Below are positions 57,619 to 64,000 of a stretch of 64,000 nucleotides of DNA, piece by piece (position 1 is the first letter of the stretch; the number at the start of each line of letters is the position of its first letter). The notes under the pieces were generated by a model. That model ran no database searches, was not told the DNA's origin, and was given only the letters and a program-made list of their open reading frames with translations. The DNA is from an uncultured Clostridia bacterium (lineage in GTDB: Bacteria; Bacillota; Clostridia; TANB77; CAG-508). The stretch lies in contig CALXRX010000008.1 in the NCBI GenBank assembly GCA_944390975.1, positions 407-64,406 of the forward strand. Reading direction: 5' to 3'. The translations under genes and the position numbers were made by a program.

Positions 57619-59052
57619 TTAGATTATTTTAGATGTACACCACCAAGTATACTTTCCCGAACTTCCACTACCATTAATTGAATATGTAAAAGCTGTTCCT
57701 GCTGTTGCATATTTAAAGTATATTGAAAATCTTTTTCCAGATGCAGTTCCATTTGCTGGACTATGCAATTCTTTTTTAGTTGTCCCTCCACTACAACTTG
57801 TAGTTATAGAATAGTTAGCTGAACAATCATATATGATAACAACAAGATATAAACCATTACTTGGAGCTGTTCCGCATGCTCTTGATGTTCCTAATTGTGT
57901 ATTAACATCATATTCTGCTCCAATTATACTAGCATTTGAAAAATCTAATAAAGAAGGGTTAGAATATATTGCTGATAATCCAGCATTGTATCCATTAGTA
58001 TAACTTGGTCTTGAGTCTAATGTTCCTCCACTGTAATACCCTGCTGGTACTGTATATGTTGTATTGCTTCCTGACCAATTTAAATTTCCTATATTTGCCA
58101 TTGTTCCCGTTATTTTATTTCCATTTACCCATGCTGTATATCCACTTAATATTTGCCCTGCTCCTGCTGTTGCTGATGTTTGGCTTGAAAGTGAATTTGC
58201 TGTTACTTTTCCACTTCCATTATGGTATCCTGCTGGTATTGTGTAACTTCCTCCTGCATTTAATGTTTGATTTATTGCTCCTCTGTTTGCCATTGTTCCT
58301 GTTAGTCCTACACTACTTGAGTTTGAAAATGTTTTTCCACTTAATACATCTGCTACTGTTGCATTTCCTGTTGCTTGCTTTTTCTGTAGTTCTGCTATTT
58401 GAGTATTTAAATCATTTATTGTGTTTTGTTGTTGTTCTATCGTTTTATTTAAGCTATCTACTTGCTGTGTTAAGTTATCTACTTGTTCTTGTAATATTGC
58501 ACTATTTCCTTGTTCTTGTTCTATTTGATTATTTAAATCTTCTATTGTTCCTTCTAGTTCTGTTTTGGTATTGTTTAGGTCTTCTACTGTTTTTTCTAGT
58601 TCTTCTACTTTTTGTTGTAGTTCTGCTAGTTCTTCATCTGTTGCTGCATCTCCTCCTGTTGTTCCTCCACCTTGATTATATATTTCATCTATCTTTATTT
58701 CATATCCTTCATCTGTTTTTATTGTGTTTCCATCTTCTTGTAGTTCTCCATAATTTCCTGCTATTTCTTCTAATTCTTCTTTTGTTAGCCCTGTTCCTCC
58801 TTTTTCTAGTTCTTTATCTAATATTGCTAGTTGCATATCTTCTTTTATTGCTGCTATTTTCTGGGCTTCTTTTGCATTTACTGCTTGGGTTATTATTCCT
58901 TTATCTCCTAGAGTTAGACTTAATGTTACTCCTGCTAGTATTAATAGTATTATTATTGTGATTACTAGCGAGATTAGTGTTATTCCTTTTACTTGTTTTA
59001 CTAGCTTTTTTCTTACTTCTTTTAAGTTACTATTTCTCAATTTTTTCCTCAT
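57619..59052 (-). CDS. Paralog B of the surface-fibre family (unique C-terminal ~130 aa)
   Basis: 477 aa. Same N-terminal segment KGITLISLVITIIILLILAGVTL, coiled coil and two GTM.N.G repeats as paralog A. Diverges after SRPSYTNGYNAG. Confidence 0.8.
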   Translation of the reverse strand: MRKKLRNSNLKEVRKKLVKQVKGITLISLVITIIILLILAGVTLSLTLGDKGIITQAVNAKEAQKIAAIKEDMQLAILDKELEKGGTGLTKEELEEIAGNYGELQEDGNTIKTDEGYEIKIDEIYNQGGGTTGGDAATDEELAELQQKVEELEKTVEDLNNTKTELEGTIEDLNNQIEQEQGNSAILQEQVDNLTQQVDSLNKTIEQQQNTINDLNTQIAELQKKQATGNATVADVLSGKTFSNSSSVGLTGTMANRGAINQTLNAGGSYTIPAGYHNGSGKVTANSLSSQTSATAGAGQILSGYTAWVNGNKITGTMANIGNLNWSGSNTTYTVPAGYYSGGTLDSRPSYTNGYNAGLSAIYSNPSLLDFSNASIIGAEYDVNTQLGTSRACGTAPSNGLYLVVIIYDCSANYSITTSCSGGTTKKELHSPANGTASGKRFSIYFKYATAGTAFTYSINGSGSSGKYTWWCTSKII

Positions 59053-59127
59053 CAGTTCCTCCTATTTTTTCTATTTACTTTTTTCTTTTTCTCAATCTAA
59101 AATATATATTTTGAATTTTTTAAAAAA

Positions 59128-59174
59128 CTGCGTAAGCGACCAAACGAATTTCGTTAGAAACGTGTGCGATTTGG
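59128..59174 (-). promoter_or_regulatory. Second copy of the conserved GC-rich leader element, upstream of paralog B
   Basis: Aligns with 3168-3213. The whole 5' region 59053-59297 is homologous to 3087-3314. Confidence 0.4.
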
Positions 59175-59202
59175 AGCAAGCTACATATTTTTCTTTTGAA
59201 GC

Positions 59203-59297
59203 AAAAAAATGACGAAGTTTATTTTTCGTCATTTTATCTTTCTATTATTCTATTTTCAATACTTTTGGGCTTTTTTAGTTATCACTTTTTTACATAA
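59203..59297 (-). repeat. Copy 4 of the terminator/promoter cassette, between paralogs C and B
   Basis: Hairpin at 59208-59233 with T7 on the minus strand. TTGAAA (59254-59259), 17 nt, TAAAAT (59231-59236). The -10 overlaps the 5' arm of the hairpin. Confidence 0.65.
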
Positions 59298-59384
59298 AAT
59301 TTTCTATTCTTCAAATATAATAACTAGCTTTTCCGCATTTATATCTTATAAAAGCTTTCTTTTTTTGGTTATCACCTATATACA

Positions 59385-61469: not shown

Positions 61470-61523
61470 ACTATCACCTAATAATAGTATTAGTAGATTC
61501 TATATTTTTTATACATTTTTATT

Positions 61524-63224
61524 CTAACTTACATAGTATATTGTAAATTTGAATGTATGTGATCCCGGTCCTGAACTTGTATATAAAGGTATTTTACATT
61601 GAGTATTTGTTACTGTTGCTCCTGTACGTAGACGGAAACCTGTGCCTGATTGTGCAGTAATAGTTTTGTTCATTTCTTTAGACCAGTATGACCATACATT
61701 TCCATTTGTTGTATCATCTAGACGTATAGCCATTATTGTTCCTGAAATATTATAGCTTGCTTGTACATATTGACGATTTTCAGCTTTACCTGATTCATCT
61801 GTAAAGCTAGCTGTTCCTGCTACTCCTGAAACAGATACAGTTGTAGTTTTAAAACTTAGTGCTGTACTATGTCCTGCACTATATCCTGCATTATAACCAT
61901 TGTTATATCCTGTTTTATAATTTGTTGAATTTGCATTTGCTCTATTATCTGCTGCTGTTACTCCTGCATTATATCCATTAGTATAACTTGGTCTTGAGTC
62001 TAATGTTCCTCCGCTATAGTACCCTGCTGGCACTGAATATGTTGTATTGCTTCCTGACCAATTTAAATTTCCTCTATTTGCCATTGTTCCTGTTATTTTA
62101 TTTCCATTTACCCATGCTGTATATCCACTTAATATGTGCCCTGCTCCTGCATTTGCTGATGTTTGGCTTGCTAGTGAATTTACTGTTACTTTTCCACTTC
62201 CATTATGATATCCTGCTGGTATTGTATAACTTCCTCCTGCATTTAATGTTTGATTTATTGCTCCTCTGTTTGTCATTGTTCCTGTTAGTCCTACTCCACT
62301 TGAGTTTGAAAATGTTTTTCCACTTAATACATCTGATGCTACTGCTGTTCCTGTTGCTTGCTTTTTCTGTAGTTCTGCTATTTGTGTGTTTAGGCTATTT
62401 ATTGTGCTTTCTAATTGCTCTTTTGTTTTATTTAAACTGTCTACTTGTCCTGTTAGGCTATCTACTTGTTGTTGTAATTTTGCACTATTTTCTTTTTCTT
62501 GTTCTATTTGTTTGTTTAAGTCTGCTATTGTTGCTTCTAATTCTGCTTTTGTATTTGTTAAATCTTCTATTGTGTTTTCTTGTTCTTCTATTGTTTTGTT
62601 TAAATTGTCTACTTGCTGTGTTAAGTTATCTACTTGTTCTTGTAATACTGCACTATTTCCTTTTTCTTGTTCTATTTGATTATTTAAGTCTTCTATTGTT
62701 CCTTCTAGTTCTGTTTTGGTATTGTTTAGGTCTTCTACTGTTTTTTCTAGTTCTTCTACTTTTTGTTGTAAATTTGCTATTTCTTCATCTGTTGCTGCAT
62801 CTCCTCCTGTTATTCCTCCTCCTTGATTATATATTTCATCTATCTTTATTTCATATCCTTCATCTGTTTTTATTGTATTTCCATCTTCTTGTAGTTCTCC
62901 ATAATTTCCTGCTATTTCTTCTAATTCTTCTTTTGTTAGCCCTGTTCCTCCTTTTTCTAGTTCTTTATCTAATATTGCTAGTTGCATATCTTCTTTTATT
63001 GCTGCTATTTCCTGAGCCTTTTTTGCATTTACTGCTTGAGTTATTATTCCTCTATCTCCAAGGGTTAGACTTAATGTTACTCCTGCAAGTATAAGTAGTA
63101 TTATTATTGTTATTACTAGCGAAATTAAAGTTATTCCTTTTTCTTGTTTTACTAAATTCTTGCTCATTTTCCCTATTACCTTTATTTTATTTTTTCTTAT
63201 TTTCTTTCTCATATGTTCCTCCAA
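61524..63224 (-). CDS. Paralog D of the surface-fibre family, with a duplicated coiled-coil module and a unique C-terminal domain
   Basis: 566 aa. An extra ~56-aa copy of the TK.ELE.TI.DLN.QIEQEK.NSA.LQ.QVD.LT.QVD.LNKT module. Confidence 0.8.
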   Translation of the reverse strand: MEEHMRKKIRKNKIKVIGKMSKNLVKQEKGITLISLVITIIILLILAGVTLSLTLGDRGIITQAVNAKKAQEIAAIKEDMQLAILDKELEKGGTGLTKEELEEIAGNYGELQEDGNTIKTDEGYEIKIDEIYNQGGGITGGDAATDEEIANLQQKVEELEKTVEDLNNTKTELEGTIEDLNNQIEQEKGNSAVLQEQVDNLTQQVDNLNKTIEEQENTIEDLTNTKAELEATIADLNKQIEQEKENSAKLQQQVDSLTGQVDSLNKTKEQLESTINSLNTQIAELQKKQATGTAVASDVLSGKTFSNSSGVGLTGTMTNRGAINQTLNAGGSYTIPAGYHNGSGKVTVNSLASQTSANAGAGHILSGYTAWVNGNKITGTMANRGNLNWSGSNTTYSVPAGYYSGGTLDSRPSYTNGYNAGVTAADNRANANSTNYKTGYNNGYNAGYSAGHSTALSFKTTTVSVSGVAGTASFTDESGKAENRQYVQASYNISGTIMAIRLDDTTNGNVWSYWSKEMNKTITAQSGTGFRLRTGATVTNTQCKIPLYTSSGPGSHTFKFTIYYVS

Positions 63225-63400
63225 CTTATTTTTATTATTCTCTATTTTTATATTAATTATGTAATTTATTATAGTTAAAGTTAATTATCTATAATTCTTT
63301 TTTATTTTAAGATTCTTATCTACCTTACGTCGATATTTTATAATTGCTTATATTATTTATTAAGTCTTTCTATTTTTTCTTAATAATTCTTCATACATAC

Positions 63401-63494
63401 AAAAAATGACGAAGTTCATTTTTCGTCATTTTATATTTCTATTATCTTATTTTCAATACTTTTAGCTTCTTTTGATTATCATCTTTTTACATAA
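63401..63494 (-). repeat. Copy 5 of the terminator/promoter cassette, between paralogs E and D
   Basis: Hairpin aatgacgaag..ttcgtcatt with the remainder aligned to the other copies. Confidence 0.6.
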
Positions 63495-63632
63495 AATAAT
63501 ATTTATTCATTAATAGTTTTTTCCTTTTAGTCCTCATTATTAAATTTATCTAAAATAAGATAAACAAAAATTAGAACTAAATATTTTTATATATTTATGC
63601 ATTCTTAAATTTTTAATGTAATATAAAATTTA

Positions 63633-64000
63633 TTATGTCATAGCAAACACATCTGCCCCATACATAGCAACAGATTTTCTAGATGAACTGTTTACTGTAA
63701 AAGTAACTCTCCAATAAGCTGCTCTAATTGGGGTATTAACATATATTCTATAAGCAGAACTGTTGTTATTAGTACCTGTATATTTTGTAGTTTGTGCAGT
63801 TGTCCAACTACTTCCATTAGTAGAATACTGAATTGTAATATCTTGTGGTCCATATCCGTATTGACTTGGCTCCCAAACTATAACTTTATATAAAATTATT
63901 CCTGATGCATAGTAAAATTGCCAATAAGGGTTTGCTCCACCACTATTCTGCCATGTCTGTGTACTTTCTTTTACTGCATTTAGATATGTTTTTACATCAG
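63633..64000 (-). CDS. 3' end of a further cluster gene (paralog E?) ending in a discoidin/F5-8 type C-like domain
   Basis: My translation of the minus strand: ...WQNSGGANPYWQFYYASGIILYKVIVWEPSQYGYGPQDITIQYSTNGSSWTTAQ...AAYWRVTFTV...DVFAMT*. Truncated by the window edge. Followed by cassette copy 5, like the other paralogs. Confidence 0.6.
   Translation of the reverse strand, partial: DVKTYLNAVKESTQTWQNSGGANPYWQFYYASGIILYKVIVWEPSQYGYGPQDITIQYSTNGSSWTTAQTTKYTGTNNNSSAYRIYVNTPIRAAYWRVTFTVNSSSRKSVAMYGADVFAMT

Follow-up and report, generated by a model that had tools for sequence, protein, structure and literature searches.

The window (the whole 64-kb stretch of DNA that was analysed), from an uncultured gut Clostridia bacterium, encodes a family of proteins that are probably chimeric surface fibres presented by a type IV pilus. 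Their N-terminus resembles that of a type IV pilin and leads into a coiled-coil stalk, to which the distal half of a phage tail fibre is fused. The domain architecture, the non-phage chromosomal context, the multigene mosaic organization and a leader held in common with an operon-encoded pilin are directly apparent, and comparison at the protein level establishes homology of the distal half, comprising shaft repeats, neck and putative receptor-binding tip, to phage fibres. On the best reading, the family proteins are modular type IV pilins to which a phage receptor-binding module has been added, and would most likely equip the cell with surface fibres that vary in binding specificity.

The paralogue family

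Three full-length paralogues are clustered on the minus strand: A (57619–59052, 477 aa), B (59385–60917, 510 aa from a TTG codon; database entry P0006, where the gene is called from the ATG at 60905, giving 506 aa) and C (61524–63224, 566 aa from TTG, or 562 aa counted from the ATG at 63212). They were delimited by open reading frame and protein alignment and, for A, also by a leader regular expression. Paralogue A is laid out as a class III-like leader, an α1/transmembrane helix, a small domain, a coiled coil of 12 heptads, two 64-aa fibre repeats and tip A. The extra copy listed in a preliminary description of this DNA, D (1566–3086, 506 aa; open reading frame and alignment; database entry P0001), proved to be a full-length paralogue on the same strand, dispersed ~55 kb from the cluster.

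That description counted four and a half clustered genes, of which the three full paralogues stand, but the fourth open reading frame is unrelated to the family, and membership of the partial gene is not demonstrable because its N-terminus lies outside the window. The unrelated frame (61173–61469, minus strand, 98 aa), directly downstream of C, received no family assignment in domain and profile searches; it is conserved, with a 77.5% identical counterpart equally placed after a tip-C-class gene in the syntenic locus L009, which holds one copy of the family against three in the window. The partial gene (63636–63998, minus strand, the C-terminal 121 codons) runs off the window; the anticipated discoidin-like (F5/8 type C) domain is its sole recognized feature (Pfam, E = 1.3e-8), and it has no homologue in the fetched family loci. 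Leucine-rich plus-strand frames overlap the family genes and are presumably artefacts, coiled-coil codons read in antisense.

As had been described, A–D share an almost identical N-terminal part, which spans the first ~355 residues and ends in divergence right after SRPSYTNGYNAG. The corresponding DNA is 90–100% identical in a mosaic pattern, identity falling to ~40% where the tips begin. A conserved 5′ unit, copies of which precede A, C and D as duplicates, includes a terminator-like hairpin that follows B (59206–59235) and recurs upstream of C (63403–63432), both on the minus strand. The best sigma-70-like promoter match (TTGACA-17-TAAAAT) lies upstream of B (61048–61076, minus strand), with the same 5′ type at C. 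Copies are scattered, amounting to at least 15 per genome, with 15 loci found in one MAG, many of them at contig ends.

Pilin-like N-terminus and a pilus operon in a related MAG

In D, residues 1–23 (3018–3086, minus strand), defined by alignment and profile, form a basic leader reaching to the near-invariant Gly(−1) of a putative prepilin cleavage site. They are followed by a hydrophobic α1-N (ITLVSLVVTIVILLILSGVTL) and an amphipathic α1-C (residues 24–84, 2835–3017, minus strand), also present on a 75-aa operon pilin, and by a small helix and β-hairpin domain with a Gly-rich linker, as predicted in an AF2 model (residues 85–139, 2670–2834, minus strand). In all four paralogues, the alignment and the leader expression recovered the class III-like leader originally reported, a basic stretch followed by G|ITL(I/V)SLV(I/V)TI... 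with Ser at +5.

The N-terminus lies below the curated thresholds of the Pfam N_methyl and NCBIfam pilin models, the Pfam scores being 17.1–17.7 bits for fibre proteins and operon pilin alike (cut-off 21.2), and a Foldseek search with the modelled N-terminal 135 residues found no pilin-like match. A profile of the N-terminal module searched against the PDB, however, matched type IV pilins only, in register at the G−1 cleavage site. The claimed pilin-like signal, although sub-threshold in Pfam N_methyl, gains support from these matches and from the operon pilin with the same leader.

The module was N-terminal in all but the top match among the 150 matches listed of 31,492 cluster representatives, in proteins ranging from 70 to more than 700 aa, and it also heads Big_2/fn3 proteins adjoining an orthologue. 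Conservation is strict from G−1 over about 30 residues across unrelated passengers. The leader is 22–29 aa long in the family versus 6 aa in the operon pilin. Position +5 is Ser or Ala, not Glu, in this system, and because this extends to the presumed major pilin, the whole pilin system is non-canonical. A review states that a subunit without Glu5 caps tip complexes (PMC10191384).

The operon pilin, P0128 (75 aa), belongs to a related MAG and has the same leader and α1 as the fibre family. Its operon encodes a prepilin peptidase homologue (A24_N_bact, E = 8.9e-32), two 140-aa minor-pilin-like proteins, PilB, PilT and PilC, and lies on a 533,685-bp scaffold that also carries P0002, an orthologue of one window gene; it is known from this related MAG (orthologue 74% identical) and not from the genome of the window. 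Eight more family matches are listed with the length of that scaffold as their longest contig. The peptidase is divergent, its Pfam match being limited to the N-terminal A24 domain; read by eye rather than taken from tool output, its sequence appears to have Glu in place of the first catalytic Asp. The earlier statement that no pilus machinery is nearby holds for the 64-kb window alone, where no pilus genes were found; homologues of prepilin peptidase, PilB, PilT and PilC accompany an orthologue in the related MAG.

Stalk, shaft repeats and tips

The stalk of D (residues 140–223, 2418–2669, minus strand) would be ~12 nm long if fully helical. The long heptad coiled coil noted at the outset is present in all four paralogues; A, B and D have 12 heptads without a break, and C has 20, its longer stalk arising from an in-register 56-aa duplication. 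Position a is β-branched and position d is Leu, a pattern that under the Harbury rules does not favour trimers. Pfam, NCBIfam and PADLOC matches over the stalk were set aside as coiled-coil noise.

Beyond the stalk, D has two tail-fibre shaft repeats (residues 224–345, 2052–2417, minus strand; GTM.N.GA...LNAGGSYTIPAGYHNGSGKV...), recognized through phrog_13589 and homology to P0113. Two repeats of ~50 aa had been described; both are present, but their period is 64 aa, the GTM.N.G motif occurring at residues 251 and 315. The repeats match phrog_13589 (E = 1.8e-28), and tblastn against phage records yielded seven matches of 34–44% identity, one annotated ‘tail protein’. In modelling, the repeat region did not fold as a monomer (pLDDT <50). 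A neck of ~30 aa (VTAADNRAN.NSTNYKTGYNNGYNAG) is common to B, C and D before they diverge and is absent from A.

The proposed likeness to tail fibres extends past the repeats, the distal half with its tips being homologous to fibre genes of prophage tail modules. P0113, which has neither anchor nor stalk, belongs to a contractile-tail prophage, where baseplate J and Mu Gp48 precede it and holin and amidase follow; starting at the repeats and continuing into the tip, it shares 53% identity with D (E = 4e-71). P0116, followed by holin and lysozyme in a tail module of siphovirus type, shares 54% identity with the anchored member P0014 up to the end of the tip (E = 2e-93). Where the family has anchor and stalk, the phage versions have a different N-terminus (MGRIW.PGG...).

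The tip cores of A–D gave no pairwise BLASTP match, in keeping with the described switch to unrelated tips after SRPSYTNGYNAG. Tip A (119 aa, 57622–57978, minus strand) is an orphan, with no relative among the other tips or tip classes tested, whereas tip B (145 aa with its neck, 59388–59822, minus strand) has an 86%-identical counterpart in a paralogue of Chicken_18_mag_112 (L007). Neck and tip C (61527–61961, minus strand) were characterized by structure model and profile comparison: the last ~113 residues are confidently modelled as a nine-strand β-sandwich (pLDDT 80–94), and the tip is a remote homologue of the prophage cassette P0108 class (87.5% probability, E = 3.5e-6). Neck (SRPSYTNGYNAG...) and tip D (residues 346–506, 1569–2051, minus strand), assigned through fibre homology, relate remotely to the P0113 prophage fibre tip class (74% probability, E = 2.7e-5). 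The modelled tip gave no significant match in the PDB, the best being a phage tail fibre (E = 3.4e-3). Among about 30 tip classes family-wide, at least three are common to anchored members and fibres placed in prophage tail modules, and a fourth is common to anchored members and one unanchored protein.

Alternative readings and known systems

Given a distal half that is unambiguously tail-fibre-like, the genes might be ordinary prophage or phage-remnant tail-fibre genes with a chance hydrophobic N-terminus. Housekeeping genes (mreBCD/minC/PBP2/M23, minDE/rodA/mraZ, rpoBC/purML and recA), however, surround the window genes and each of the four relatives examined; genes for phage structure, lysis or integration are absent from the flanks of the six loci examined (the window cluster, D, L001, L009, L026 and L027), no stalk-bearing relative was found in IMG/VR, and genuine phage versions begin differently. 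Residence in a prophage, raised earlier as a possible refutation, is not supported, and we consider this reading very improbable. It is also unlikely that the proteins protect against phages as receptor masks or decoys, tethered phage tips occupying or competing for the receptors of related phages; several tips would cover several phages. Such a role would fit the diversity and turnover of tips, their occurrence also in tail fibres of prophages from related Clostridia and Lachnospiraceae, and the location of D, which has a PDC-S01 candidate defence ATPase (E = 2.4e-153) on one side and a small CRISPR-like array on the other. Against it, PADLOC models were unmatched beyond coiled-coil noise, most copies lie among housekeeping genes rather than in defence islands, and the closest phage tips come partly from Lachnospiraceae, another family, so that they may not bind this host. 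To our knowledge, receptor-binding-protein decoys encoded by the host are without precedent.

Possible, if doubtful, is a pilus-independent arrangement in which the N-terminus is a mere signal anchor, cleaved or not, and stalk and fibre project the binding tip from the membrane through the wall. Pilus genes adjoin none of the five family loci with examined flanks, the module is carried by a very large and varied protein set that includes Big_2/fn3 surface proteins, leaders are much longer than in the operon pilin, and archaeal non-filament surface proteins with class III signals are documented (PMC3047682). A plain anchor, however, needs no strict conservation from G−1 through about 30 residues, the operon pilin is headed by the same sequence, and a stalk of ~12–21 nm with a short fibre would hardly reach past a Gram-positive wall. 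It may be that not all of the more than 31,000 module-bearing clusters can be filament subunits, which counts against presentation on a pilus.

In the pilus-presented reading that we prefer, the precursor would enter the membrane through α1, and the lineage’s prepilin peptidase would remove the basic leader after the conserved Gly. The coiled coil and fibre repeats would then mediate oligomerization, probably into a trimer as in tail fibres, and the type IV pilus machinery would present the product, most plausibly as a pilus-tip cap as with CofB. Each paralogue has a different tip, so a cell would hold a repertoire of putative binding specificities. The near-identical 1-kb constant regions would permit tip reassortment by homologous recombination, the tips sharing one pool with those of prophage tail fibres.

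Exchange of receptor-binding tips in phage tail fibres is known from the Mu G and P1 C segments. The fibres P0113, P0108 and P0116 have homologous shaft repeats, neck and tips and the same plan of constant proximal part and variable distal tips; in the related prophage L020, tip cassettes on opposite strands are accompanied by inverted repeats of 374 nt and 416 nt and a tyrosine recombinase. In the family, by contrast, the virion-attachment N-terminus is swapped for a pilin-like anchor and stalk, each tip has a complete gene, and the genes lie on the chromosome with housekeeping neighbours; the window showed neither an invertase nor an invertible segment. Prepilin-type signals as a general route to the surface are also described for the sugar-binding proteins of the Sulfolobus bindosome (PMC3047682), and the wide use of the family’s leader parallels these archaeal class III signal surface proteins; the family is bacterial and its passenger different.

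Among type IVb minor pilins, CofB is reported to be homotrimeric, modular and exposed at the pilus tip (PMC8179133), and TcpB is reported to initiate pilus assembly (PMC5207764). Both resemble the family in having a pilin N-terminus, then a β-repeat region and a C-terminal β-sandwich (PMC6048534, PMC5207764), and the long leaders of the family resemble the type IVb style. No sequence or fold match to them is detectable, and they are single genes inside a pilus operon, without coiled-coil stalk, phage-fibre homology or tip cassettes. In modular type IV pilins, such as Streptococcus sanguinis PilB with a vWA module and PilC with a lectin module (264 architectures have been catalogued; PMC8179133, PMC9934059), a binding module is likewise grafted onto a pilin N-terminal module with a class III-type signal, where it is expected to be exposed at the tip and serves in adhesion; the lineage studied here grafts Big_2/fn3 modules, too, onto its leader. 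The family’s pilin module is minimal, with Ser or Ala for Glu at +5, and below the IPR012902/N_methyl threshold, and would therefore have been missed by the published InterPro census. Unlike single operon-encoded minor pilins, the family is multi-copy with many tip classes, and what it grafts is the distal half of a phage tail fibre, with a long coiled coil in place of a short linker.

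Organisation and anatomy of the paralogues

Three complete paralogues, A (57619–59052), B (59385–60917) and C (61524–63224), lie in tandem on the minus strand, and a fourth complete copy, D (1566–3086, minus strand), is located outside this cluster. C and B are separated by a 98-aa ORF unrelated to the fibre paralogues (61173–61469, minus strand), and the last 121 codons of a partial gene at the window edge (63636–63998, minus strand) encode an F5/8 type C discoidin domain (Pfam E 1.3e-8). Because the N-terminus of this gene lies beyond the window and its discoidin tip has no homologue in any fetched locus, it is not countable as a paralogue. 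The cluster, counted as four and a half genes in the preliminary description, is instead made up of three paralogues, a small ORF and a partial gene of unproven kinship.

Paralogues A–D align nearly residue for residue over ~355 positions and diverge immediately past SRPSYTNGYNAG. A neck of ~30 residues beyond this point (VTAADNRAN.NSTNYKTGYNNGYNAG) is kept in B, C and D, and the four tip cores show no pairwise similarity by BLASTP, which upholds the earlier account of a constant N-terminal part followed by an abrupt tip switch. The constant part is 90–100% identical in DNA (the window has a G+C content of 27.5%) and is mosaic, with A identical to D in some stretches and B to C or D elsewhere, a pattern that would be expected from gene conversion. 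At the tip boundary, DNA identity drops to ~40%.

The duplicated unit reaches 250–300 nt 5′ of the genes (59053–59384, 63225–63640 and 3087–3400) and contains a promoter-like TTGAAA-17-TAAAAT with a terminator-like hairpin immediately after it (ATGACGAAAAAT.AACTTCGTCATTTTTT). On the 3′ side of these elements, one type of 5′ region is common to A and D and another to B and C. Invertible promoters were dropped as a candidate, since the only inverted repeats detected in the regions preceding the four genes were AT-rich chance matches and terminator hairpins. A search against Rfam returned nothing in the cluster and no c-di-GMP riboswitch upstream of the genes.

The domain order is described here for D. 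A basic leader with Gly at its end (residues 1–23) precedes a hydrophobic helix (residues 24–48, ITLVSLVVTIVILLILSGVTLSLTL), a GDRG break (residues 49–52) and an amphipathic helix (residues 53–83). A short helix, a β-hairpin and a Gly-rich linker (residues 84–139; AF2 mean pLDDT 76.5) connect these to a coiled coil of 12 unbroken heptads (residues 140–223), which is followed by two 64-aa repeats (residues 224–345, with GTM.N.G at 251 and 315) and by the neck and tip (residues 346–506). In C the stalk comprises 20 heptads because a 56-aa segment, exactly eight heptads long, is duplicated in register with 38 of 56 residues identical, so that stalk length varies while the coil stays unbroken.

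The AF2 model of the N-terminal part (mean pLDDT 76.5) consists of helices at residues 2–48 and 53–83, the short helix and the hairpin; Foldseek found no PDB match for it below E = 1, and hence no pilin match. The last ~113 residues of C form a confident nine-strand β-sandwich in the model (pLDDT 80–94), and the best PDB match of this tip is a phage tail fibre, at an E value of only 3.4e-3. The fibre repeats are not folded when modelled as a monomer; interdigitated trimeric fibres usually fail to fold in monomer models. Searched with Foldseek, the repeat-plus-tip model matched nothing in the PDB at E ≤ 0.001, and its matches in BFVD were weak, low-TM and phage fibre-like. Full-length Pfam, NCBIfam and PADLOC matches (SMC, JetC, LmuB, filament and others) were disregarded as coiled-coil noise. 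A sortase-anchored adhesin was also dropped, as the paralogues terminate in tip domains without a C-terminal hydrophobic anchor.

The 98-aa ORF is helical, has no signal sequence, and obtained neither a family assignment nor a PADLOC match. Its counterpart in Chicken_18_mag_112 (L009 11387–11683) is 77.5% identical and lies directly 3′ of a gene of the tip-C class, an arrangement thus seen in two genomes; the ORF could be a tip-specific helper or regulator.

Phage-fibre homology and genomic setting

The repeat region matches the phage protein family phrog_13589 with an E value of 1.8e-28, and tblastn yielded seven matches in phage records, one of them annotated ‘tail protein’. Some homologues have neither anchor nor stalk and begin with MGRIW.PGG.... 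One fibre of a contractile-tail prophage, P0113, shares 53% identity with D along a stretch beginning at the repeats and extending into the tip (E 4e-71). Its gene is preceded by those for sheath, tube, tape measure, LysM, baseplate J and Mu Gp48 proteins and two small genes, and is followed by a 321-aa gene, a holin and an amidase; the P0113 protein cluster includes Lachnospiraceae MAG proteins. A second prophage fibre, P0116, belongs to a tail module of siphovirus type, with a tail terminator, a Gp15-like protein and a tape measure of 1174 aa; its gene lies immediately 5′ of holin and lysozyme genes, and the protein is 54% identical to P0014, an anchored family member, through to the C-terminus (E 2e-93). 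The phrog_13589 match and these two tail-module homologues bear out the resemblance to phage tail-fibre repeats proposed in the preliminary description. Judged by homology to fibre genes in tail modules, the outer half of the paralogues is a phage tail fibre, in which the virion-attachment N-terminus is missing and a pilin-like anchor and coiled coil stand in its place.

The leader is present in 77 of the 120 best homologues, and their last 105 residues fall into ~30 tip classes. Three of the classes include fibres shown to lie within prophage tail modules, and a fourth includes one unanchored protein. In profile–profile comparison with the tip classes, tip C is related to the class of P0108, a prophage cassette (87.5% probability, E 3.5e-6, 97 columns), and tip D to that of P0113 (74%, E 2.7e-5); tips A and B are orphans.

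In the prophage that carries P0108, which is part of a Clostridia MAG, the tail-fibre tip appears to be switched by inversion (L020 9933–14733). Its expressed fibre gene (13817–15412, minus strand) shares inverted repeats of 374 nt (90%) and 416 nt (73%) with two cassettes on the opposite strand, one of which is P0108. A tyrosine recombinase gene, flanked by a 27-nt inverted repeat, lies between the repeats.

The paralogues themselves are set among housekeeping genes. The window cluster is flanked by genes for M23 peptidase, MecA, RadC, MreBCD, PBP2 and MinC, and D has an AAA_14/DUF4143 ATPase gene on one side and a YcxB-like gene on the other. In a related MAG the D orthologue is found between minDE/rodA and mraZ; for other family members the flanking pairs are rpoC with purM and a solute-binding protein gene with recA. 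Patterns derived from the stalk retrieved no relative from IMG/VR. Residence in a prophage, one finding that would have overturned the preliminary description, was thus not encountered.

Chicken_18_mag_112, a Clostridia MAG from chicken gut, contains 15 family loci, many of them at contig ends. In this MAG, locus L009 shows synteny with the window, sharing a tip-C-class gene, the 98-aa ORF and the M23 peptidase, and holds one family copy against three in the window cluster. The tip-C-class gene there (L009 9896–11328) is broken into three ORFs of 65, 163 and 184 aa, which may reflect a pseudogene, a phase-variable frameshift or a MAG assembly error.

Several other features of the window were recorded. 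The ATPase beside D (109–1338, minus strand) matches the PADLOC candidate defence system PDC-S01 with an E value of 2.4e-153. Upstream of D, a small intergenic CRISPR-like array (3593–3878) comprises four 36-nt repeats (GTTTTAGAATTGTGTTATTTTAGATAGTAGTAAAAC and variants, at ~3647, 3713, 3778 and 3844) and three 29–30-nt spacers, which have no match in the fetched loci. An 18-nt stretch (3593–3610) has sequence complementarity to the repeat and may represent an anti-repeat of the tracrRNA type; the match of the array to Rfam CRISPR-DR22 is weak (21.9 bits, under gathering), and no large unassigned ORF fit for Cas9 lies nearby. Two adjacent giant surface proteins of 1663 and 1695 aa (37458–42449 and 42473–47560, minus strand) carry DUF11 and SdrD_B domains as well as Sec-type signals; a transmembrane anchor is present at the C-terminus of both, and an LPXTG motif in neither.

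The pilin-like N-terminus and a type IV pilus operon

All four paralogues share K-G↓ITL(I/V)SLV(I/V)TI(I/V)ILLIL(A/S)GVTL, in which a basic leader ending in Gly(−1) is followed by ~20 hydrophobic residues, as in prepilins. The Gly is near-invariant among 29 aligned module sequences, one of which has Ala. The prepilin Glu at +5 is replaced by Ser in A–D, and by Ala in the operon pilin described below and in Big_2 proteins; no member of the pilin-like system carries it, the presumed major pilin included. The same leader is found on two Big_2/fn3 proteins adjoining the orthologue, and on other proteins in other MAGs.

The prepilin-like signal proposed earlier matches PF07963 (N_methyl) only below threshold (17.1 bits against a cut-off of 21.2, E 0.004), and it is the context that argues for the pilin-like reading; the operon pilin scores similarly low against PF07963, at 17.7 bits. 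NCBIfam pseudopilin models matched the N-terminus at E values of 0.02–0.15, far under their cut-offs. Searching with the leader as query returned mostly ~75-aa proteins. Against the PDB, a profile of the module matched five sequences, all type IV pilins (MshA, PilA, PilE1 and geopilin among them), with a best E value of just 0.0055, and these align with the module in register at the cleavage Gly. A profile made from the window N-termini together with the operon pilin and small pilins like it matched 31,492 cluster representatives at E ≤ 0.001, of which 21,201 reach E ≤ 1e-10. The module-bearing proteins range from 70 to >700 aa, and among the matches listed the module is N-terminal in all but the top one.

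No pilus gene lies within the 64-kb window, nor were type IV pilus genes found in 14 fetched loci of Chicken_18_mag_112, which cover only ~230 kb. The search for peptidase and pilus genes did succeed in a related MAG, where a type IV pilus operon (L021 7093–16227) and P0002, the orthologue of a window paralogue, occupy one 533,685-bp scaffold. A longest contig of this length is also given for eight more of the family matches. In order, the operon encodes a 550-aa protein, called PilM/N-like by sequence alone and without Pfam support, membrane proteins of 236 and 151 aa, and the 75-aa pilin P0128. A 270-aa prepilin peptidase homologue follows (A24_N_bact, E 8.9e-32), then two 140-aa minor-pilin-like genes whose products carry G↓VTTAD and G↓VTTTS, and finally a PilB-type ATPase (MshEN and T2SSE), a PilT-type ATPase and a PilC-type platform protein (T2SSF). 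The presumed major pilin, of 75 aa, is all-helical with Ala at +5. The catalytic C-terminal domain of the peptidase has diverged beyond what Pfam recognises, and Glu appears to occupy its first Asp position. We read the operon as a non-canonical type IV filament system.

Proposed assembly and relation to known systems

With moderate confidence, we interpret the family as modular type IV pilins onto which a phage tail fibre's receptor-binding half has been grafted as a module. The precursor would be inserted into the membrane through α1, the leader would be cut off after the Gly, and the coil and fibre would drive oligomerisation. The pilus machinery would then present the protein, most plausibly as a tip cap. 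A tip position is suggested because tip complexes are characteristically capped by subunits lacking Glu5 (PMC10191384), and because CofB, a modular minor pilin with β-repeat and β-sandwich domains, is exposed at the tip as a homotrimer (PMC8179133). Binding specificity would differ from paralogue to paralogue, and tips could be reassorted by way of the identical 1-kb stalks.

Other explanations would account for parts of these data. The fibres could be tethered to the membrane independently of pili, as in the archaeal bindosome, a rather unlikely reading. They could act as receptor-masking decoys against phages with cognate tips; this is improbable, the paralogues having no PADLOC match other than coiled-coil noise (the JetC and LmuB matches are confined to residues ~60–300). 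That they are ordinary prophage fibres would fit the homology of their outer half and is contradicted by their genomic context, the housekeeping genes on their flanks, on which grounds this highly improbable reading was rejected.

The modular-pilin interpretation can be extended, although this extension is rather unlikely, to a single pool of moving tip cassettes shared by prophage fibres and host pilus-tip adhesins, from which the host would draw, for its own ends, specificities that phages evolved towards glycans on bacterial surfaces. The tandem, near-identical stalks would then serve as a recombination scaffold reassorting tips within the population. Such a pool could be used for attachment to other gut bacteria, the closest phage tips found being those of Lachnospiraceae prophages, or to kin, or for masking the receptors of those phages.

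Should the modular-pilin interpretation itself be right, phage and host would take receptor-binding domains from one stock, and the family would exemplify in nature the reuse by a host of tail-fibre tips from phages on a scaffold of another kind. It would also bring to light a very large group of pilin-like proteins, so far unannotated, on the surface of gut Clostridia (>31,000 sequence clusters with the leader module). The family further offers a starting point for asking how uncultured, low-GC Clostridia of the chicken gut may adhere to partners or substrates.

With its non-canonical leader, the family escapes surveys that rely on signatures: a published census of modular pilins would miss this lineage because it used the canonical N-methylation signature, and the leader has no Glu5. 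No description of a pilin–tail-fibre fusion was found in the open-access literature. It is established that type IV pili can be made adhesive by modular pilins, and modular pilins, trimeric tip pilins and phage fibres with swappable tips are each already known separately. New here are the combination of a pilin-like anchor, a coiled-coil stalk and the distal half of a phage fibre, and its organisation as a multigene family with both tandem and scattered copies, whose tips are shared with prophages.
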